Positions 6,491 through 51,371 of a stretch of DNA of 64,000 nucleotides are shown one piece after another. The DNA comes from Pseudovirgaria hyperparasitica (lineage: Eukaryota): the NCBI GenBank assembly GCA_010093815.1, contig ML996583.1. One strand, given 5' to 3'. The notes below the pieces were generated by a model. It was not told where the DNA came from. It did not search any database and saw only the letters and a program-made list of their open reading frames with translations. Position numbers and translations under genes: made by a program. Position 1 is the first letter of the stretch. Each line of letters begins with the position of its first letter.

Positions 6491-7129
6491 GGGACCAGCC
6501 AGGGGACCGGGTAGTACACCTTCCCTCGCAACGTACGCGGCGCGGAACAGCGGACTTTATGCGTCAAAATTCATGCGTGAACCACGCTTTTCCTTTCTTT
6601 CTTCAATTCTTGTTTCCGATAACTACCAGCTGGGACTGAACTAGACTTTCCGTCTCCGCTCGTCTTTTTTGGAACATTTTTTTTTGGGCCTCTCTATTAA
6701 TTAGATATCATTCTTTCTACATGCGATCTACCAACAACGCTCTTGGCACCACCGCCGTCGTCGGACTTTGCCTGTAACACACACACACTCACACCAGACT
6801 TTGCTCATCTTTTCTCTTGGCCCAGCCAGCCGGCCGGTCGAATATGCATGTCCTTTGCCTGCCATTGGATGGAATCCCCAAACGCCGTCTTGACTGTCCG
6901 ACTGGGCTTGGCCTCATGTGCATGCTATTCATGCCATGCCCGACCCATTCTTTACCAAACCACCCTACTAAACTACGCAACAACGGTACGTCCCCGCTGA
7001 CATCCCCTTCCGTCAACGCTCGACATGCTTGGTCTCGTCTCTTCAATTGACCTGCTTCTCCCGTTGTCATCGTCGTTGTCATCGTCATCGTCATCTCCAT
7101 CATCATCATCATCATCATACACCCTCCCG

Positions 7130-8793
7130 TCATGCGTCGCCCATCACATCCTCGTCCATCCCGTCCTTATGTACATCCCAAGACGTGTCCATGGCCTCCT
7201 CCCCACTAGCTGCCTGTGCCGCCTTCATCCGGTTCTTCTTCTCGACCTCAATAAACTCCTTCGTCAGGTTGATCCGGTGATCCGCTGCTCTGGTTTGCTC
7301 CGTAAGACTTTCCGTCCGTGTCGCGCACGCAACCAGCTCCTTGTACTGTTGCTGCTCCGACTTTGCTTTTGGGCCCATCGATTCGTCCGAATAGAACTTC
7401 AACACCCGCTGCTGCGTCTTGATCGACCGCTCAATGCTCGCATTGACTTGTCCTTCCTTGATAAGAGTGCTCAGATACATCTCCAGCTCCTCGTCTCCTT
7501 TATTCAGCAACCCTGAAAGCTCGTCAAGTGGTATCGAGGCATATGTCCGCTGTAGCTTGTACAGCAGGAATCGAGGATAGTTCTCCACAAGCTTCTGCAC
7601 CAGCCCAAAGTTTCCGTCCTCACTCCACAGACTGAGCCCAGCCTCGATTTCGGCCAGCAATCGTGGTAGGTTCAGATCATGCAACACCTCCGTCAATTGT
7701 TCGTAGGCCTTTGATGCCGATCTTATCGTCCGCATTGCGTTGCCGTTGGCCGTTTTTGGTATAGGCGGCCGCTGTCATCATGGTCAGCAAACAAGGATCC
7801 GGTCAAAAGCATACTTCTACTGACTTGTCCGGAAGCTAGTGCGCCCGCGAGAACATATTTCTTGTACGCCTCTAGCATAAGTCCATTTGCCGTGTTACTT
7901 GTCGGAGTTACGAGGACGTGTTCCAGTAGTGCTTGTGCTTCGTCGTACTTCCCCAGACCAAGAAATGCCATGGCGCCCAGCAAAAAGTATTCTTGCACAT
8001 CTGCCGTGCGGATCTTTTCCGACAACCCTGATTTCACTGTAATGTAACCGTTGCTCAGCCCGTGATCTGCACAGAGCAGCCCTTGTTCTCCGCCTTGGCT
8101 TGCGTTGGGCGGGAAGCTGTGGATGATACAGTCGAGGAGTGGGACAGCTTGGGCATATGCGGTCGATTCCATGCATAACTGCATGAAAACTACATGTGTA
8201 GTCGTCAACGTTCCACCTGAAGGGTCAAGTCGCAGGATCGCTGTTCGGATAGGTATCAACGCCATGGCGGGCTGCAGCAGCACATTAGCATCATATACAG
8301 CATTACGTCAACTTCAAGGGAGAAACTGACCTGCCGAAGTATGCTTGCTACAAGCCCAATAAATTCTATAAGCTCACGCCATTGCTGTCCGAAGTATCGT
8401 ATCGATATGGGGTCGAAAGAGCTAAGCAGCTGCTCAGTCTTGTTCCAAAGAACAGCTCGCGGTCGCCATGCATCTGATACCTGATTGACAGACCTTGGAC
8501 GGAGTCCACTGTCGCCCTGGTTTTGTGCTAGGGTATAGAGAGTGAGGAGTAGGGACACGGAGTTCAGCGCAGGATCCAGGGCCTTGAAGATACAACGTCA
8601 GCTCCAGTAGCATCATGGTTTCAAGAGCTCTTTTTACCTCTAACAGACTCCCTGACTCGGCACTCTTGACCCATTCTCTTGAAGAGAACTTCTTCACCGT
8701 CGCCGAGAACTTCTTTACATTTTTATCGTACTCTGATGGTTCAAGTTGCGGGTCTGGAGAGAAGGCGAGGAGCGTTGAGGCTAGATCAGACAT
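7130..8793 (-). CDS. CSN3: COP9 signalosome subunit 3 (PCI domain), ~498 aa, 4 exons (8793-8638, 8582-8331, 8271-7825, 7771-7130)
   Basis: Motifs LRLDPSGGTLTTTHVVF, EYFLLGAMAF, LEAYKKYVL and EDGNFGLV...LQRTYASI...IKEGQVNASI are typical of CSN3. Three canonical introns (8583-8637, 8272-8330, 7772-7824) with branch sites join the exons in frame. Confidence 0.88.
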
Positions 8794-9375
8794 GTCGAGC
8801 TGTATAGATTGTATGAAGTTCCAGGGTGACTCCTATGAAGTCGTCTTCACAAGGATATATCTTCTTGTCGTACGATAGTTGAAAGTAGAGGGCGGGGCGC
8901 GAGTGTTCGTGATGCTTGCTTGCGCTGGGCGATGGAACGCTTGCTGCCTAGGAGGTTGGGAGGGTGAAAGCCAGGTACGCCGCGCTGAGAAAGAAGAAGT
9001 GATTCGAAGGGCCAAAAGACTCCTGGTAATGCAACAGGTAAACAGAGTATGTGAAGTGACTTGAGTGCATGCCGTAACTTTACCGATTACAATATGAGAG
9101 CTTAGGTAGTTTTGGAACGTGCCCGCGTTACTTGGCCCGAGCGTCAAGCTGGTATCCTTACGACACACTTGGCAAATAACAAAACACAAGACATTGATGC
9201 ACGCTTCTCAAGGTTGGAAAACCAGTCAATACTCTGTTATGTCGGTATTCAGTTGACTAAAGCAATGGAGCGCTGAAAACGATGCATGCTCACTACACCA
9301 CCAGACGCCGAAACCAATGCAATGCATCCGTCCAACACAAACTCCTCAACATGCAAACGAACCCTCCTGACACAA

Positions 9376-12300
9376 CTACTTCCTCCTCTCCTTGATCTGG
9401 ACCTCGAACCTCCGGAGCAGACCTTTCAGGCCCACGCCTTTCTCGCAATTCGCTTCCAGCCATGTTTCCATCTTCTCCCTCAATGTGCGCATGCCGTGAA
9501 GCACAGGCATCTTCCGACCCTCTTCGCCCTCGAGATGCATCAAAGGGTTCAGGAAGAGACTGAATGCCTCCGCCCAGATCTCAGTCTCCCAGTATCTTTT
9601 CAAAGATTCCCGGATTTTGTACGTCTTCGTTTGACCGGCCCCGAGCGTTGTGCCACGCTCAGCAACGATTTCCATGTACTTGCCGAACAGCAGATTATGT
9701 ATAACACAAGCAATGCCGTGATAGTCAATTTGATAGGTCCAAGGTCGAGTCTCATGCATCTCTGCGCAGTCGGCTTCACTAGGTGTCCAGTCGGCTATAA
9801 ATTGGACGTCTGGCTTGAAAACTCTCATGTCAATTCCCCGACCGAAGTCGATGATGGTGATACCACGGTCAGACCAGCCATTTTTCCCGTCTCTGGAGTA
9901 TTGTGTAGACCAGTCATCATCGGCGTGCGCAATGCGTACTAGAACATTATCCGATTTTATGTCACCGTGCAACAGACCCTTGCTATGGAGGCCCTCAACA
10001 GTACGCAGCAGTTCGATAGTGAAGAACATCGCGAGCAGTTCGTCCATCACATTACCACCACTAGCGTCTGCCCTAGCGAGATTGACGAAATCGAGTAGTG
10101 TACCCTGATTCCTGAACTCCTCAACCAAATAACACTCATCTTTGAACATATGCATCTCATATGCCTGAACGATAGAGTCGGCTGGCCTTTGGACGCCCAA
10201 GCGGCGCTTAGCTTGACGTATCAAATAGAATTCCCAGGCAGAAGGCGGCTCTTCCATCTTGATGGCTTCAAGGTCCCCACGTGGTATTGCGAACGCGCCC
10301 TTGCCCATTTTTATGCCAGGTTCATCGTCGTCGTCGTCGTCTAAAGAGGAACTATGGGCCAAGTACACCGGCGCAAAGGCACCCTTGCCAAGCTCCTTCT
10401 TCACGACATACTGTCTATCCGACCCTGCTAGGCGTATGACAGGTGGCATCGTCAGGTTCGTGGCCGTCTTGTCGTTGACGTTCCTGTTTACCTTAGAAAC
10501 GGCCTTAGTGAATTTTCGGATTTCAGCAGACATTCCATTCGTCTTAGACAGGTCTTCGAAGTAGCCGTCGTACGAAGATAGTGGTGGCTGGATTTGATTG
10601 AGGATGATGTTCTTGATCTCGTAGTTGATTGGATTACACCGGGAATCTTTGATGATCGGGCCATTTTGTATCGGAAGACATTGGCTACGCGAGTCTGCAC
10701 TATTCGTTGCAGTTGTGTTTGCAGCACATGTTGCCATCTTCAGGTCAGGCTGTGGGACCTTGAACGGACGTTGAGCCTCATCGAGGCCTTCTCCGACAGG
10801 ACTGCTCCAAAGGTCATCATCAGGTTTTGCAGATTTGGTAGGAGTCTTTGAATTGAAGTAGTCCTTCTCTTTTTGAGCTTGCGCAAAGGCGGTCGCTGCA
10901 CCAAGAGATGACTCCGTCTTCTCCACTATCGGGGTCATGAAGGGGAGCCTGTTCTGTGCAGCGCGTCCAACATCCCGGTACGGTCTCGTAGGTACTTCCA
11001 TGTCCTCAGGAGGCTCCGGGACGAACTTGGAGTTCGTTTCATCAATAGCTGACGGGGATGTTGGAGTGACTAGGTCTTCTGCTGCAGCCTCATCGAAGGA
11101 AAGCTGCTCAGTTGCTTGCTCCTGGTCATCATCGTCATCATTATCATCACCAGCAGTCTCCAGTTTTGCTAAACCTTCGGGGACATGTTTGCTAGCTGTG
11201 AAGTCGGACCACTCTGAGACACTCTTAACATCAGCTGAAGAAGCCTGATCGTCGTCACTATCCATATCGTCGTCGGCCCCTGCTGCAGTCTGGGTGGTAA
11301 AGTCTCCACTCGTGGTGTCACCAAAATCGCTCGCACTCACAGAGATCCGTCCAGTTGTAGTACTTTCGCCGCCACTCGTATAGTCATCATCACTAGAAAC
11401 CTCGTCACTTTCATTCTCAGAGTCTTGTGATGACTTCAAAGGCTGATTGAATATTCCATAGATCTCGTCCATGGCTTCCCGGGTACATATAGTCATAGTC
11501 GGCTCTGCAGTTTTCTTCCTCCTGAGTTTTTTTCCTGTCGGAGAATCAAGGTTGGTCATGACTTCGAACACAGTCAGTAACAAAGTCGCGATCGTAAGAC
11601 CAGAATGCAACTCACCTTTGGTTGTCTCGTTGTGAACCTCCTTCAACCTAATCTTCTTCGTCCTGTTCGCTCGGTCCTCTCTTCGCGCCTTCTTTACCCG
11701 ACCAGCATGATCTAGAGGCACCGTGGTTGGGGGCATATTCTCGGAATCTTCGTAGTCGTGGTGTATCGCAATCTTGAGTGGCCGGTCGTCTCGTGAAGCT
11801 TCTTCTCGGTCTCCCTGAACGACAGCCTGTGCGGAAGTGTCTGTGATTGCAGACTTCTCTTCGACTGTCACCTGTAATACTGCATCCTGTTGGTCAGGTC
11901 CTGGGGCAGTTTCCTCTTCTCGTCTTCTCTCTGCTCCCCAATCTAACCAGCCGCGGTGCCGTGCGCGCAACTCTTCAAAACAATACTCGATTTTCACGGT
12001 CGACGAAGGATACACCGCTTCGAGGTCGACAAAGACACACTCATATCTACCAGTCTTTTCGTTGAAAGTCATTTTCATATCTCGTAATGGATTGGGTTCG
12101 TTATCATTAATGGATGATCTCTGGATACAAAAGCAGAATAACCGCACCTATCAGTCCTGTGATCGTAAATAGGGAGTTTAGGGAAGCGCAATCGCTGTAA
12201 GCACTTACCTCGTCCTTGAAAATAGCCATCTTTGGCACACCATTATTGGTTTTGGCCGTCCGTAGCTGCTCACCCGCCCACGGTTTTGCCTCAATACGAT

Positions 12301-13180
12301 TCTCCTTGCGTCTCTCCGCGAGCGAACCAATTCTATCCCAACCCTTTGAGCTATCGCTAGAACCGCTCCGAGGTGGCTCCTCCGTATCCGAGAAGATTGA
12401 CATTTTCTGCCTGCCCGGTTTCGAGCCTGTCACGCCAGATCCTCTTGCTTGCGGATCTACTGCAGGTGATGCAGCATGGGAGGAGAACGGGTCGGTCTTC
12501 GCGGCCAGCGCTGGGCGAACCGTGGGAAGCGCCGGGCTCGTTGGCTCTTGCGCATCATGGGGTCGGCTCTCGAAGCGGTGCTGAAATTCCTTGTATTTGC
12601 GCAGCAATTTTTGCACCGGACGCGCCTCCTTTTCTATTCCTAGCTTGTAGACTTCTTCCGCTTGACTCCAACGACCAGCGCCCTCGAGCCATGCAGCAAA
12701 TTCTTCGTAGTATAAAGCGAGCCCATCGCCTATGTTTTGTCGAGAGAGATACGCAAATGTCTCCCGCGGAGTGTCATCAAAGAGACGTATGTAGTGAAGC
12801 CAGAACTTCAGATACCGTAAATCATTCTTGTACTGAGGCGAAGACAGGAATGCCTTCGTCGCGCGCTCAAGAAGAGGAAGAAGTTGGGACTGCGGTGTAG
12901 CCTGCGCCGAAGGATACGCTTGTAGCGTCCACCTCACATAACGTTCATAAACATCCAGCGGGTCATCTAATTCATCGATCGTGAGAAGTTCCTTCTCATA
13001 CTCGTGCCGAAGTGCATCGTTCAAGTTCTGTGTTTGTGATGGAGAGGGAGAGGGTCCAACGCTCAAAGGCGCATATAGAGAAGCGAGAGCTTTTGCAGAC
13101 CTGCCGCTCGGAAGGGATTGTATGTTTTCTTTATGTGTCTCAATAAGATCAAAGTCAATTAGATCATCGGTGGCAGCCAT
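9376..13180 (-). CDS. BUB1: Spindle checkpoint kinase Bub1/Mad3 (unduplicated MadBub, SldA-like), ~1220 aa; exons 13180-12209, 12120-11616 (acceptor uncertain, alternative exon start 12147), 11561-9376
   Basis: KEN1 (HKENIQSL), TPR region (DDPLDVYERYVRW, YKNDLRYLKFW), ABBA-KEN2-ABBA-like cassette (MSIFSD, RRKEN, MAIFKDE), GLEBS (EYCFEELRA), CD1 (EPTMTICTREAMDEI), KARD-like MTPIVE, and a kinase domain (LGKGAFAPVY, HGDIKSDN, IIDFGRGIDM, PWTYQIDY). Confidence 0.95.
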
Positions 13181-13640
13181 ATCGAAAGTAGTGTCTCTGC
13201 TTTGTTAGTATCCAGGCGCACAAACTGATAACGTGTGTCGCAAATGACTTCGAGGAGGTGTTGTTTAGGCATTGTTGAGCGGCTATGCCCTTGATAAGAT
13301 GATAGTTGCTACGGAAACGTGTAGGGCCACATCTAGGCAGGGCGTAACCCAGCGCAGTTAATAACACCTAATAATACAAATCGTGCATGACACTGGTTCT
13401 TGATGCGTGGAATTTAGACATTTGAGCTAAGTGTCAAATTATTTCCAGAGATTGCTCGGAAGCTTTCAAAGGCATTTCATTTTCGCCATACTAATTACAG
13501 AGTGGAATGATTGCGAGGTCCGCTTACAATGCTTTGCTACCACATATTGCCCCCTTTTTAGAATACAGAGACTTTGCCTATGTACGACATTCTGGTCACA
13601 GGCGAATATTACTAAAGACCGATTGACTTTTTCGGAACGC

Positions 13641-14665
13641 TCATTTGGCCCTCGCGGCTTTGTCGCTAGCAGTTTGGTTGATGTTCAAGCCAAGTCCCTG
13701 CGAGTCTAAATAGACCTTGTTGGCTCCGTTCTGTAGAATTTGCGCGATGTTCCTAGCATTTTCGAATTCTCTTAGATCAACGTACGATCGAGACTTCTTG
13801 ATAGCGTCACCGATAAGCTCAGCACTACGTGCTTCACCCTGGGCTCTCACGACCATTGCCGACTTCTCTTGCCTAGCTTTGTCCACAACGAATGCGGCAC
13901 GTTGAGCTTCCTGTTGCGCAACCTGCTTCGCCTCTACGGCAGCGGTGAATTCTGGTGAGAAGGCCAGGTGGGTAAGAGATACATCATCGAGCATGATGTT
14001 AAATCGGGCCGCTCTGCGGACGAGATTATCTCTGACCATGCGTGACACATTTTCACGTTGTGTGATAAGTTGTGAAGCGTTGAACTGAGCGACTACACTC
14101 TTGAGGACTTCGTTGACGATCGATGGGAGCACTCGTTCGTCATAGTCAGTCCCAAGGGTGCGGTAAATCTGTGGAAGAGCGTCTACGCGTGGTCTCGAGA
14201 GGACACGGCAGGTGATATTCACCATCTGGAGGTCTTTCGTACCGGTGAGGGAGGCGACATTCCGAGGTTTGGCGCGGACGTCGTAGGTGATTGGTGTCTC
14301 GAACCACGGTATCCGAATATGCGTTCCTAGCTTTGAATGAGCAACAATCCTGTGGAGGATGTAAAGTTTCGGCAGTCATCGAACCTTCGTTGTAGATTTC
14401 CTTGCCGACACCACCTAACCTCGTGTATTTTATCGCACGATGACCTCCATCAACTGGGAGTAGACAACGTCAGTCTCTGATTTTACCAAGTGGATATGGT
14501 CTCACCATTGAACAGTGCATTGTTACCAACCATCAGAACACCACCAAGGACGACAAGACCAACAAGACCGGCGCCGGCACCTTTTGGTGGAGGGAAACCA
14601 CCGTTGCGCTGAGCATTCTGCAATGAGCGCTGAAGGCGCTTCCATGTCTCTTCAGGTCCAGACAT
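13641..14665 (-). CDS. PHB2: Prohibitin-2, ~304 aa, 3 exons (14665-14506, 14453-14385, 14326-13641)
   Basis: ALFN|VDGGHRAIKYTRLGGV...EG|THIRIPWFETPI, DYDERVLPSIVNEVLKSVVAQFNASQLITQRE and AKQVAQQEAQRAAFVVDKARQEK. Introns at 14454-14505 and 14327-14384. Confidence 0.96.
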
Positions 14666-15481
14666 TCTTCAGCGGGCGCAATAATGTGGCTGATGAATGA
14701 TGTCTTGGAAGGGCTCTCGAAACTGCGGTGATGTGGTGGTTCTGTGAGGCGACGATGCGGAGCTGTCTGGACTGAAGCTCCTCCGCTTCGCTAGAGAAAT
14801 GTACCAGGATCACGTTCATGCCTACACGTGACCTACTAGGATCCATCGAAAGCCGACACTATTAGTTACGCCGACGCACGAATGATCTAGGACTTTGAAC
14901 TTTTATAATTCATCTGTTTGAGAACGCTGATATTAATTTCTTAGACCGTCATTCGGTTCGATAGAGTGACCATGTCTGAAGCATCTTCATCCAGCTCGGG
15001 AACGCTGCAATAGTAAAGCATGCACATTGAGCAAAGCAATCTTGGAAACCCAATGAGTAAGTTTCATAGCTTCTGGCGTCTGTAGCCAATCACGAGCGTG
15101 CCCTGGGACCAAACAGAACAGCTGGCCCTTCCATTTGCGAATCGAAGACCATAGTACTTGCTGCGCAGGACAATTCATGATACCATTCTCCCACGAAGTA
15201 CGCCAACCCAGACTTTGGACCTTCGTACCTCCGCTGTCCACGCCCGCATTCTATGCAGGTGTCATAGCCCGCCATTGATCGCATGTCATACGCCATCCAC
15301 TCTATCAGCATCTTTGGTAAGTCGATGAGCCATGTGTGCGCTCTTATTGTCCTGACGGTTGTATTCAGTCCTCTCCCGGACTCAGACTACAGTCTCTACC
15401 TGCTCGTTCTAATAACCGGCGCGCCTCCCCTGTCGCGCCCTTACCTTACTCTCGACGACATTCTTCGACCGGACCAGCACC

Positions 15482-16820
15482 ATGCGTTTAACGCGATCTA
15501 TAATGCGAGTCGCAGGATTGTCTGCTTTCGTATCCGCAGTACAAGCGCAATATACTTTAGACAATCTAAGCTTTGGACACAAAGATGGCAGAATTTCTAC
15601 GAATGACGAGAGCGTTGATGGATGGCAACTACTCGGCGAACAGTATACTCCATACCTGTTGTCAGATCGTGTGATTTTGACGCCACCTTATCCTGGAAAC
15701 AAAAGAGGTGCGATTTGGTCTATCAATACGATGCCCAATACTGAATGGGTGGGAGAGCTCAATTTCCGGGCGTCAGGGGATGACAGGGCTGGAGGTAACA
15801 TGCAATTATGGTACGTTAAGGATGGGAAGAGCTCGGTGGGCACAAACAGCCTATATACGGTTGACAAGTTTGACGGGCTTATGCTTGAGATCGACACGTA
15901 TGGCGGCCGAGGCGGAGTGATACGTGGGTTCTTGAATGATGGTACAAAGTCTTTCAGAGGGCACCATAGCGTGGACGCTTTATCATTTGGCCAATGCGAC
16001 TACCCGTATCGCAACACCGGGAAGTTTTTACCTTTGACCGTAAAGCAAACGGCCAACGGCTTAGAAGTAATGGTAGACGGAATCCCGTGTTTTCGAAGCG
16101 AGCAGGTGATCCTGCCCACGGGCTATCAATTCGGAGTCACAGCTGCATCTGCGGAGAATCCTGATTCATTCGAAGTAGCGAGCTTCAGGGTCTCTACGAC
16201 TGGATCTACTACTCGTGAAGAACCACGACGAGATCAACAACAAAACCAACAAGCATTTAAGCAGCCTCCATCTTCACGAGGCAACAACATTATCCCGGAC
16301 TCTCTGGCAGAAGACATCAAAACTCAAGAAGCCCAGTTCAAAGACTTGCACGACAGGCTACAAGCCATGACCTACCAAATCGGCATTCTCCATGACCAAA
16401 TCACCAAGCTACATGAACAGCAAGCAGCAATCCAGGTCGAGACCAATAATCAACTTCGCCCCATAAATGAACGTGTGAACGAAGCCAAACAAGTGCAAAG
16501 TCGCATTGAGGACAGAGTGAATGAGATCAAAAAGGACATCGAAAGCAAAGACTACAAAGACATGATCAACGCGTTACAGCAAGCGGTCACTGCCGGGCAT
16601 AGCAACATGATGCAGAACCTCCCCCTGCAAATGGACCAACGTGAGTATCCAGGTCGTCCTGAGCAGCACACATAGCTAACTATTTCGTCTAGTCATGAGC
16701 AAAAATGGTCCTAAGCTAAGCACTTTTGTCTTAATCATCATTGCCGTCCAGATAATCCTTATTGGTGGTTATATATTGTACAAGCGAAGGCTGAAGAGCA
16801 TGCCTAAAAAATATTTGTAG
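15482..16820 (+). CDS. L-type lectin cargo receptor (ERGIC-53/Emp46/Emp47-like), ~428 aa, 2 exons (15482-16640, 16693-16820)
   Basis: Signal peptide, lectin-like domain (RVILTPPYPGNKRGAIWS, FGVTAASAENPDSFEV) and coiled coil. After intron 16641-16692 come a TM helix and the cytosolic tail ...MPKKYL*, a KKxx-type signal. Confidence 0.9.
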
Positions 16821-17615
16821 TTCTATCACATGGAAGGCTCCAGTGGCACTGGCACGCATGCATCATATTATGGAGTTTGACGCAAACTTTTGAGTTATTT
16901 CACTGTGTCTATAGCAACATACCCCTTCTTCAGGGTGGTAGAGTACTGGGCACCATTCCAGCTGACGTCATTGTTGACTTCGACCAAGTGACTTGACTTT
17001 ACTCCTCATCCATGATATTCGGCTGAGCAATCCTCGGGTGTTCCTTATGCTTGACCAGCATGAATCCTGTTGGACAATTGGTGGAGAAAAGGCTTGGAAC
17101 GGCCAGATGAATGAAAAAAGGTCATGAGTTGCTATATCTAAATATGGCCCGGCAGCATTCAAAAGAAGAAGAGTAAGACACCCACACCCGGAACCCGTCT
17201 CCGCAAAGGCAGAAAAGGCCAACAAGACCAAGGACATGGATGGCGGCCCCATAGTTCGTAAGCTGCATATGGATGCGCATATCACAGCACGCTACCCATA
17301 TCCCTGACCCGGCCCCGGCTTCGGCTTTACATAGATGTTCTGAGCTCGAGCAATAATGCCCGAGCCAGTCCGCTTTGTCGTTCCGCCGACGGATGAGTTG
17401 GAGCTTTCTCGCGCTGCGGCAAACAACAAGGTCCCCAACGTCTATGAGATCACCCGGAAAAGCGCTCTGCTGCTTTTTGACGTGCCGCTTGAGTGCCATC
17501 ATCCCCGAGATACGCAACTCAGTACCGTCCTTTACAGCTTGTTTTGCCCCATCTCTCGGTCCGCTCAACATTTTAGCCTGAGATCGCATCAGGAAAGCTG
17601 TGCGCCTACGTCTAT

Positions 17616-50614: not shown

Positions 50615-51371
50615 TCACGACCGGATGTCAATCTTTACAACAACTCCCTGCCTTGTTCTAGTTTCGTTCAGACCCATAGCTGATACCGTGCGCTGGCATA
50701 ATCCTTCATCGACTTCGACGCTTACATTAATCCGCTCTTCGGGCATTATCTCAGTGCTATGAACCATGGATGTCTGACTGTCTCGCGGAACTGATTCGGT
50801 AAATCGTTTGAACAAGCTTTTTTTCGTTTGCCTCACAAGTGCATTTGCTCTCACATCACGGGCCGAACAAGGGCTTTGCGTCTGCACTCGTGGTGAGGAG
50901 AGATGGTCGAATAATGCTCTTTGGAGATCTTCTGTCACTCCGGTTTGTTTCCAGAAGCCAGCCTGGTTCATTATGCCCTCAAGTTGGATAATTCTGACAT
51001 GATCATCGATTGAAAAGCCTACCAAATCGACTCTTGGGATTACTGGTTCGAGCTCGCTTTCTGCGTGACATTTTAGACATTGGACCGCACGATCACTTAG
51101 TATACTCACCGAATCGATACTCCTCCACTTCCGTTTTAGCAGAATTGGCGGGAAGTAATAATACCAGGACTGTTCTCGCAATGCCCATATCTGTTTGCTC
51201 TTTCACCTCAGGGCAGATGTGCTGCTCGACGATAGAACGAATGTGCTGCGACCGTACCATTTCCAATCGGTCAATGATCCTTTGTTCTTGTGGCACTTTT
51301 TCTCTCGCATTCTCATCGACAGAGCTAGCAATGGTCTCCTCGTACGAGGGCAGGAACTCAGCTTTTGGCAT
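50615..51371 (-). CDS. Hypothetical protein, ~235 aa, 2 exons (51371-51110, 51060-50615)
   Basis: Two ORFs are joined in frame by the 49-nt intron 51061-51109 (GTGAGT..CTAAA..CAG). N-terminal LPSYEE (PY-like) motif. Confidence 0.7.

Follow-up and report, generated by a model that had tools for sequence, protein, structure and literature searches.

A conserved splicing switch in filamentous-fungal MadBub likely yields a short Mad3-like protein

Introduction

Duplication of the MadBub gene followed by subfunctionalisation is recurrent (PMC5204127, PMC7414715, PMC5409178); in Neurospora and Aspergillus the gene is said never to have split. The MadBub locus of Pseudovirgaria hyperparasitica raises the question of whether one undivided gene can supply both kinds of product. 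It lies on the minus strand of the window, the whole stretch of 64,000 nucleotides of contig ML996583.1 that was analysed. An earlier note on this DNA had proposed that alternative acceptors in intron 1 give both a short Mad3-like protein and the full-length kinase, making this a case of subfunctionalisation by splicing.

A single MadBub gene with two acceptors in intron 1

A genome search by protein and by PF08311 returned one candidate and one match, the sole MadBub gene; neither a paralogue nor a separate Mad3 gene was found in this search of an assembly that may be incomplete. The coding sequence of exon 1 (12209..13180, minus strand, as for all features below; 324 codons) is common to both isoforms and encodes: the KEN1 box (aa 17-19, 13124..13132), invariant across 106 aligned homologues; the TPR domain (Pfam Mad3_BUB1_I, aa 58-182, 12635..13009; E 3.2e-43); and the RxxL sequence RPAL (12506..12517), which we take to be D-box-like and which is kept in aligned short homologues (as RAAL in P0308) and missing from the fission-yeast Mad3 row of that alignment. 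The exon closes with the ABBA1-KEN2-ABBA2 cassette as defined in PMC5204127 (12212..12403), in which ABBA1 (12403-12386), KEN2 (12307-12299) and ABBA2 (MAIFKD, 12229-12212) are flanked by Trp residues in the order ABBA1-W-KEN2-W-ABBA2. Exon 2 of the long form (11616..12120) includes the GLEBS motif (Pfam Mad3_BUB1_II, PF08171, 12078-11941; E 3.6e-4, 21.1 bits against a cut-off of 21), and is followed by intron 2 (11562..11615; 54 nt, ordinary CTGAC branch), whose joint is present in the RNA contigs and which served as a control. Exon 3 (9376..11561) carries a presumably CMI/CD1-like motif at 11496-11440 and an intact kinase, with the G-loop from 10389, HGDIKSDN at 9969-9946 and DFG at 9849-9841 (PF00069, E 2.9e-13).

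The long form is 1220 aa, with 52% to full-length P0241. KEN1 and TPR, the ABBA1-KEN2-ABBA2 cassette, GLEBS and an intact kinase are thus combined in one gene with no paralogue found, which is the composition of an unduplicated MadBub. The long form is the protein that undivided genes uniting every MAD and BUB motif encode elsewhere, namely A. nidulans SldA, N. crassa NCU10043, Cryptococcus Bub1 and the single-copy protein of L. kluyveri. Papers on those four genes assume one polypeptide per gene; A. nidulans SldA was tagged C-terminally, so a short N-terminal isoform would not be detectable there.

The donor of intron 1 (GTAAGT, 12203..12208, phase 0) reads GAG|GTAAGT and follows ABBA2, which ends at 12212; the earlier note had correctly placed it right after the KEN1-TPR-ABBA-KEN2-ABBA block. 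The proximal acceptor CAG (12157..12159) defines a 52-nt intron (12208-12157) and joins exon 1 to GAC TGA TAG, giving a protein of 325 aa that ends AIFKDED, and intron retention gives 357 aa, with a read-through of 33 aa in the window; on these points the earlier reading was confirmed. The distal acceptor CAG (12121..12123) closes an 88-nt intron in frame with GLEBS and the kinase. Between the two lies a lineage-specific TAG (12148..12150). It is a further in-frame stop and might act as a minor acceptor, closing a 61-nt intron in the GLEBS-kinase frame. A micro-exon GACTGATAG with donor GTGCGG at 12147 was also considered and rejected on reading the sequence, as it leaves a 27-nt intron and contains stops.

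The proximal acceptor is used in RNA

The RNA for P. hyperparasitica consists of intron-less contigs from two runs of one sample in one study. One contig per run covers MadBub, reaching 13255 and 13227 at the 5' end, and the proximal joint (12155/12208, a skip of 52 nt from 12208 to the proximal 12157) lies within it in both runs. All nine joints in these contigs correspond to GT-AG introns, and 52 nt is the modal size (4/9 joined introns), as the earlier note had held. The proximal acceptor is genuine and is used in the RNA of this organism. Neither a distal joint at 12121 nor one at TAG 12148 occurs among the contigs of both runs; being contigs from one sample, they carry no readable isoform ratio, strand or 3' end. 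Distal use is known from a relative, whose RNA contig (L016) equals the genomic locus L017 minus both introns, with the distal AG used; proximal use is known from this organism and distal use from that relative only.

Protein records ending in x-Asp-stop after ABBA2 number 14 of 504 in the database: seven are NCBI gene models, which may be ab initio, five come from JGI/Logan contigs and two are without source. Three short-form proteins sit on contigs of 1.16-1.30 kb; genomic matches sit on contigs of that size as well, and these three were not counted.

One possibility would be regulated unproductive splicing, in which the proximal acceptor leads to NMD and so sets or times the dose of full-length MadBub, the short protein being incidental. 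We regard this as possible, if rather doubtful. The stop is premature and, given a normal 3' end, would be followed by a 3' UTR of ~2.9 kb with an exon junction ~535 nt past the stop. Assemblers, however, retain the better-covered branch, and both assemblies of the sample, like five further JGI/Logan contigs, kept the proximal form, which argues that it is not scarce. The available part of PMC7746235 reports that, in Neurospora, a long 3' UTR or an intron within it can set off NMD, but also that ck-1a, an NMD target in this fungus, still gives protein. In the available part of PMC9340482, checkpoint function is described as dependent on protein dose, which would suit such regulation.

The two acceptors and the short-form stop are conserved

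Conservation was followed across 79 homologous genomic loci, which form 51 sequence groups with a median identity of ~57% aa in the last 70 residues of exon 1. The groups cluster near named proteins that we take to be Eurotiomycete, Sordariomycete, Lecanoromycete and Dothideomycete, hence from at least four Pezizomycotina classes. A phase-0 donor lies within two codons of the intron 1 position in 79/79 loci, and YAG|GAC TRA is present at the intron in 79/79 loci and 51/51 groups, the stop being TAA in 50 groups and TGA in one. AG|GACTRA occurs in none of 36 intron-2 calls (two of them false hits, leaving 0/34 real) and in 0/20 pattern-defined introns. Judged on these alignments, its conservation is far beyond chance, and the conserved proximal AG and stop anticipated by the earlier note are borne out.

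Upstream of the proximal YAG (51/51 groups), an A at -10 sits in a RTTYAY/RTTGAY-like sequence in 49/51 groups, with TT at -13/-12 in 50/51 and T at -15 in 49/51. In the window this is TATTTAC (12165..12171), a conserved, weak branch-site candidate for the proximal acceptor with predicted branch A at 12166. CTAAA (12177..12181), which the earlier note had favoured as the proximal branch, is present in 1/51 groups, the window itself, and was discarded as a conserved branch signal; its use in this species alone is still possible. The same motif had been suggested for the sirtuin, SYP1 and 51061 introns; the letters were read at the 51061 intron, where they agree (GTGAGT at 51109, CTAAA near the 3' end).

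An in-frame distal AG is found in 49/51 groups, in line with one of the two distal acceptors that the earlier note had named, CAG 12121. The other, TAG 12148, is an in-frame YAG nine bases past the proximal site, a feature that none of the 51 groups has apart from the window; it is also 3 nt away from the A predicted for the distal branch and has no RNA joint, and was rejected as the main distal acceptor. That branch is predicted within GACTGAT (12150..12156), a putative dual-use element that supplies the Asp and TGA stop of the short form and matches the CTRAY branch consensus for the distal acceptor, with predicted A at 12151. The short-form stop codon thus falls within the branch-site consensus of the distal acceptor, and a further YTRAY precedes the distal AG in only 2/49 groups.

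This overlap invites a simpler account, splicing noise, in which the AG just happens to precede a conserved branch site and is spliced by mistake: the distal acceptor needs GACTAAT, a strong branch consensus of the ordinary kind. By the same token, since CTRA is required for the distal branch in any case, its conservation is no proof of selection on the stop. The YAG, the +1 G and a second branch-like element at a fixed distance are nevertheless kept in 49-51 of the 51 groups, while positions -36 to -20 hold ≤0.39 bits and the pattern is absent from the intron-2 controls; moreover, the proximal junction is the one that was assembled. Together, the RNA joint, the conservation and the controls largely refute noise, which we consider very improbable.

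Consistent with a coding role, the AG-GAC-TRA spacing is invariant, so that the stop is always the second codon (51/51 groups). A pure NMD trigger would not need invariant spacing, since any frameshift suffices. In locus L054 the donor precedes the Asp of ABBA2, so there the short form alone would supply this Asp. Distant proteins are also interrupted at the intron 1 position; the position may therefore predate the second acceptor, and the clean cut after ABBA2 may be inherited rather than selected. Read-through of a retained intron meets a stop within two codons in 18/51 groups against 4/34 controls (p 0.022, for groups that are not independent).

Two conserved non-coding motifs resemble regulator binding sites, which would suit unproductive splicing: TGGC between the acceptors (34/49 groups) and TGTA within -18..-3 of the distal AG (38/49; controls 0/36 intron-2 calls and 0/20 pattern introns), the latter at 12126..12129 in the window and retained in the short mRNA only. 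Folding of the stretch from one acceptor to the other gave an empty consensus, with a mean z of +0.29 and 0/49 groups below -2, and a conserved RNA structure there was rejected. Of the 49 groups, 10 have an A-rich hexamer in bin 1 of exon 2 and 11 have one in bin 2, compared with 0-5 in other bins; the excess falls on coding positions, and an early polyadenylation signal was rejected on this ground. The main text of an A. fumigatus 3'-end mapping paper (PMC12810187) makes no mention of sldA or Bub1.

The short product resembles fission-yeast Mad3

The reference for the short product is P0354, which we take to be from Schizosaccharomyces pombe. Across residues 1-223 it is identical to the Mad3 of PDB 4AEZ (chain C). 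The 325-aa product aligns with it end to end at 34% identity, upholding the likeness drawn in the earlier note: both have KEN1-TPR-ABBA1-KEN2-ABBA2 and neither has GLEBS or a kinase. P0354 is 310 aa and ends, after the same ABBA2, four residues past the last residue of the short form. In S. pombe, Mad3 is encoded separately and has a TPR of its own, whereas the TPR of the short form is letter for letter that of the long form; the short form also keeps the D-box-like RxxL that S. pombe has lost (PMC5204127). The short product thus fits the MAD-type motif set (KEN1, TPR, ABBA1-KEN2-ABBA2, no kinase), but comes from no separate duplicated gene. From its motifs it may work like Mad3, although it is not a Mad3 paralogue. 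That the product is, by alignment, a complete Mad3 equivalent further argues against its being incidental to unproductive splicing.

A short protein might be made without being an MCC subunit, serving instead to compete for Cdc20/Cdh1 or to buffer them, for instance while the checkpoint is silenced, in interphase or in meiosis. The long form already carries every MAD motif, and the short form, without GLEBS, has no evident Bub3 route to kinetochores; the available part of PMC3591445 describes phenotypes of sldA mutants that mad1 mutants do not show. The same architecture is, however, a working MCC subunit in fission yeast (4AEZ), and we consider a competitor role unlikely.

Discussion

Taken in aggregate, these data make it probable that proximal splicing adds Asp and a stop, that the short mRNA is likely translated into a 325-aa Mad3-like protein, and that the distal acceptor would give the full-length kinase. 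The mechanism would involve two acceptors that compete via overlapping signals: a proximal unit with a weak branch (TTTAC or TTGAT) and an optimal YAG|G; and a distal unit whose strong branch, GACTAAT, doubles as the stop and is separated from the AG by ~30 nt, and whose first exon base is not G. Selection of one branch would bar the other and thereby set the isoform ratio. The level of the short mRNA may be trimmed by NMD, and the message may end early near the conserved TGTA.

The short protein would hold the whole Cdc20-binding set (KEN1, TPR, the D-box-like motif and ABBA1-KEN2-ABBA2) without GLEBS, CMI or kinase. With this motif set its role would be that of fission-yeast Mad3: an MCC subunit that works independently of Bub3 to inhibit APC/C-Cdc20. 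The 1220-aa form would bind Bub3 and serve at the kinetochore as scaffold and kinase. In fission yeast, recruitment of Mad3 proceeds via the Bub1 TPR, independently of Bub3, according to the available part of PMC6657678. In Cryptococcus and L. kluyveri a single MadBub polypeptide reportedly fulfils both roles, so the need for a short form is not evident.

The interpretation in the earlier note is partly supported. Two acceptors in one gene and a Mad3-like short product stand, but subfunctionalisation is incomplete, because the long product retains KEN1, KEN2 and both ABBA motifs. Judged by motif content, the gene products would be a Mad3-like protein and an intact MadBub, not Mad3 and a KEN-less Bub1. 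As in MadBub duplicates, the cut parts two co-segregating clusters, with KEN, ABBA1-2 and D-box before it and GLEBS, CMI and kinase after it; unlike them, there is no duplication and the BUB-like product still has its KEN boxes.

The closest precedent is fungal SKI7/HBS1, where, in the available part of PMC3597508, one ancestral gene uses conserved alternative 3' acceptors and its products match those of separate, duplicated genes in Saccharomyces and Schizosaccharomyces. MadBub is alike in having one gene, conserved alternative acceptors at one intron position and an isoform that mirrors the duplicate gene of another lineage. Here the mirrored product is the short form, which resembles P0354, while the long form resembles MadBub and not a KEN-less Bub1. 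As far as that source goes, the SKI7/HBS1 isoforms both retain the C-terminal GTPase, the difference between them being an internal segment, and western blot and complementation demonstrated both proteins; the proximal site of MadBub truncates the protein by a stop overlapping the consensus of the distal branch, and the short form is known here from RNA and sequence. Neurospora ck-1a, in the available part of PMC7746235, is likewise a Pezizomycotina kinase gene with an alternative acceptor, a short isoform and a long 3' UTR, but its short forms retain the kinase that the MadBub short form loses.

On a broader scale, we lean slightly towards the reading that most filamentous ascomycetes make a true Mad3 from the MadBub gene. 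An ancient two-branch switch, in which the stop is the competing branch site, would yield a GLEBS-less, kinase-less MCC subunit about as abundant as the full-length form: a MAD fate without the duplication seen at least 16 times elsewhere, which would explain the single copy.

No published report of this MadBub splice switch was found in the literature, and the available part of PMC3597508 describes deeply conserved, protein-changing alternative splicing as rare in fungi. Whether it was adaptive for MadBub to divide, again and again, into Mad3 and Bub1 is in question, a yeast fitness study having found no benefit. A short Mad3-like isoform across Pezizomycotina, if true, would mean that the same product was reached independently, in cis and without redundancy, and the isoform's maintenance under those terms would make a case for selection on free Mad3. 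The switch would account for gene models that split the locus, and in these fungi an sldA/bub1 gene tagged at the C-terminus or disrupted in the kinase alone would report on one product only. Filamentous-fungal MadBub thus contains a deeply conserved splicing switch, and the short form, observed in the RNA of this organism, probably makes a Mad3-like protein that elsewhere comes from a duplicated gene.

Two acceptors in the first intron of MadBub

Exon 1 of the MadBub coding sequence comprises 324 codons on the minus strand, from the ATG at 13180 to 12209, its end lying one codon past the ABBA2 motif MAIFKD; the exon matches Mad3_BUB1_I in a profile search (E 3e-43). By sequence, a phase-0 GTAAGT donor follows at 12208. 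The proximal acceptor, CAG at 12157, is the earliest AG more than 40 nt from this donor. As the earlier note had claimed, and as was read back from the sequence, it defines a 52-nt intron followed by GAC TGA TAG, giving a 325-aa product with the C-terminus AIFKDED. TAG at 12148 (61-nt intron) and the distal acceptor, CAG at 12121 (88-nt intron), each place the downstream ORF in frame; retention of intron 1 would give 357 aa. In profile searches this ORF matches the kinase and, with a score at the cut-off, Mad3_BUB1_II (GLEBS), and its kinase catalytic motifs are intact. Intron 2 (11615-11562, minus strand) is removed in RNA-derived contigs. A search for a separate Mad3 in the 35.4-Mb genome, an assembly that is possibly incomplete, returned only MadBub, with one candidate and one match each for the protein and PF08311 searches.

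Contigs from two unlabelled runs of a single sample were compared with positions 7000-17000. They are taken as RNA-derived because all nine of their joints there are GT-AG and because depth differs between genes, by tenfold. The MadBub contigs, one per run, span 9237-13255 and 9211-13227 with zero differing letters, and both splice 12208 to 12157 and excise intron 2. The proximal junction, which the earlier note had suggested seeking in RNA, is therefore present in both runs. No distal joint was seen in the contigs of either run, which represent one sample and carry no ratio information; since assembly contigs lose variants, the proximal form is present, and absence of the distal form does not follow. 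Nor does finding the proximal joint in the same contig as the 3' end far downstream place both on one molecule. Four of the nine joined introns are 52 nt long. Leaving intron 1 aside, seven of eight carry a CTRAY branch between -13 and -17; the proximal unit of intron 1 has none. An RNA-supported 58-nt intron at 14327-14384, in a presumably prohibitin-like gene, has the donor GTTCGA and no YTRAY branch, the nearest candidate being CTCAT.

Conservation of both acceptors, and their use here and in a relative

A scan of metagenome contigs, with aligned exon-1 ends as the query, gave 191 stretches, 151 of them confirmed, from which the best 80 were taken as loci. Genomic sequence with a phase-0 donor at the exon-1 end accounts for 79 of these best 80, and all 79 contain AG/GACTRA (slash, splice site) 46-135 nt inside the intron; the remaining locus, L016, is already spliced. 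Loci and window, clustered at 88% nucleotide identity, form 51 groups. The proximal AG and stop, whose conservation in relatives the earlier note had made a check, persist as YAG/GAC TRA in 51 of 51 groups (TAA in 50, TGA only in the window). Upstream of this AG, A occupies -10 (49/51), TT -13/-12 (50/51) and T -15 (49/51); positions -36 to -20 hold at most 0.39 bits. The conserved element reads TTTAC, TTCAC or canonical TTGAT, making it a branch-site candidate (TATTTAC in the window, A at 12166). The CTAAA previously put forward as the proximal branch occurs in one of 51 groups and is discarded as the conserved signal, though it may still serve in this species; the CTAAA also ascribed to the intron at 51061 does appear in the sequence, near the 3' end of a likely 49-nt intron (51061-51109, minus strand, donor GTGAGT).

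In 49 of 51 groups the proximal site is followed after 24-60 nt by a distal AG that is in frame, the other two being not resolved, and in 46 of the 49 it is the earliest AG at least 15 nt on. A second YTRAY precedes it in just two of 49, so that the distal branch is predicted to be GACTAAT itself. Intron-2 controls, called in 36 of 51 groups (two false by inspection; 15 not found), showed no AGGACTRA, no AG right before the branch and no TGTA near the end. Of 20 introns defined by pattern, one had AG near the branch and AGGACTRA occurred in none.

In a tree of 70 rows of loci and named proteins, loci fall beside Penicillium, Aspergillus, Paecilomyces, Thermoascus and Emergomyces; Rosellinia, Fusarium, Cordyceps and Thermocarpiscus; Loekoesia and Caloplaca; and Alternaria and Cryomyces, which we take to represent Eurotiomycetes, Sordariomycetes, Lecanoromycetes and Dothideomycetes. 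The window sits within a supported 26-row set containing Alternaria and Cryomyces. As the groups are related, 51 groups are not 51 independent events; the outcome is one ancient, retained element. Distant homologues (P0263, P0270, P0280, P0289, P0298, P0348, P0364) also show a break or intron read-through after ABBA2. P0263 and P0270 carry the RTN frame of the element, by which the switch may reach basal Pezizomycotina.

Stored homologous proteins (n=504) comprised the best 120 of 1108, 1150 and 1133 matches, 178-578 aa only, plus the best 150 of 1787 representatives. After the motif, 355 read into the intron (Val), 65 continue otherwise, one stops at the donor and 14, among these best matches, end x-Asp-stop, the exact proximal product; 69 lack the motif by the pattern used. 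The length filter conceals long forms, so these counts give no isoform ratio. NCBI models whose evidence basis is not visible make up seven of the 14 (Rosellinia necatrix, Thermocarpiscus australiensis, Cordyceps sp., Penicillium fimorum, Thermoascus crustaceus, Aspergillus egyptiacus, Paecilomyces variotii); JGI/Logan contigs are the sole origin of five, and two have no source. Because JGI/Logan proteins otherwise read through the intron, those five probably come from spliced transcripts. L016 shows the distal form: it is 100% identical to the genomic locus L017 except that intron 1, 85 nt long and ending at the distal AG, is missing, as is intron 2. The alternative acceptor is real, deeply conserved and used: one gene has two acceptors, the proximal used here and the distal in a relative.

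Two predicted products

By sequence, the short product has KEN1, TPR, a D-box-like RPAL and ABBA1-KEN2-ABBA2, without GLEBS, CMI or kinase. Fission-yeast-type Mad3 P0354, identical over residues 1-223 to the Mad3 of PDB 4AEZ (presumably fission yeast), can be aligned with exon 1 over its full length (34%) and ends four residues past the last residue of the short form. The lost and kept motif sets correspond to two clusters that co-segregate once MadBub has duplicated (PMC5204127, excerpt). The Bub1 TPR recruits fission-yeast Mad3 without Bub3 (PMC6657678, excerpt), so Mad3 can function without GLEBS. At 1220 aa, the long form retains all MAD motifs and thus is MadBub, not a KEN-less Bub1. The earlier proposal of a Mad3-like protein and a Bub1 from one gene is partly supported: the short architecture fits it, and the long form would be an intact MadBub.

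After ABBA2, P0354 ends in Val-Ser and two residues, as read-through of a GTRAGY donor there would give; speculatively, this C-terminus may derive from an ancestral intron. Directly past the distal junction, adjoining ABBA2, the residue is Ser/Thr in 45 of 49 groups (Arg-Ser-Ser in the window, 12118-12120), a possible phospho-site in place of the short form's Asp.

Proposed switch and its purpose

The proximal unit would combine a weak branch with YAG/G (G at +1 in 51/51 groups). In the distal unit, which has T or A at +1 in 48/49, a strong branch would act across a long spacer. Since the units overlap, branch choice would set the isoform ratio. No conserved RNA fold was found between the acceptors. 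TGGC(G), often doubled, lies between them in 34 of 49 groups; the window (12126-12150) has TGTA and no TGGC. Both motifs are candidate binding sites of a splicing or 3'-end factor.

Selection on the protein end is hinted at by three observations. The stop is invariably codon 2 after the proximal joint (51/51 groups). Retained-intron read-through halts within two codons in 18/51 groups versus 4/34 controls (Fisher p 0.022, the groups being related; 33 codons in the window). In locus L054, as in P0259 and P0268, the donor lies two codons earlier, right after F-[KR] and before the ABBA2 Asp, so that only the proximal mini-exon of the short form would supply Asp and the long form would lack it.

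The main rival reading, rather unlikely and not exclusive of a protein product, is dose control through NMD of the short mRNA. Extended to the normal end, this mRNA would have a ~2.9 kb 3' UTR and a junction ~535 nt beyond the stop, each of which triggers NMD in Neurospora (PMC7746235, excerpt); yet the assembled path is the proximal one, for this sample as for five further contigs, and ck-1a, an NMD target, still yields protein (same excerpt). Intron 2 is missing, with the frame open through the site, in L018, L032, L048, L052, L055 and L058, which keep intron 1 and both acceptors. The downstream junction is thus not universal, which weakens junction-dependent NMD as the conserved purpose. 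TGTA matches UGUA, an element of 3'-end processing. Located at -18 to -3 of the distal AG in 38 of 49 groups and retained solely in the short mRNA, TGTA also matches the Nrd1 motif, reported as slightly enriched at premature termination sites (PMC12810187, excerpt); early polyadenylation of the short mRNA may therefore be possible.

Relation to known systems

Among the papers listed by searches of the open-access full-text literature, no title or abstract start reports alternative splicing of fungal MadBub, and a term search of PMC12861292 found nothing on the topic in the text it covered; the short variant may already be present in genome databases, as it is among some NCBI models. In excerpts, a single gene is said to do all jobs in Aspergillus (PMC3944740, PMC3591445), where the SldA tag was placed at the C-terminus (PMC3944740), and likewise in Cryptococcus, where the paper describes the gene as believed to encode one polypeptide (bioRxiv 2022.09.21.508923; see also excerpts of PMC7414715, PMC5409178, PMC12323316). 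The closest known kind is SKI7/HBS1, in which a choice between conserved alternative 3' sites yields what two duplicate genes encode elsewhere (PMC3597508, excerpt). On balance, we favour translation of the short mRNA: an unduplicated MadBub would probably yield from it a Mad3-like protein, a ~37 kDa subunit of the MCC.
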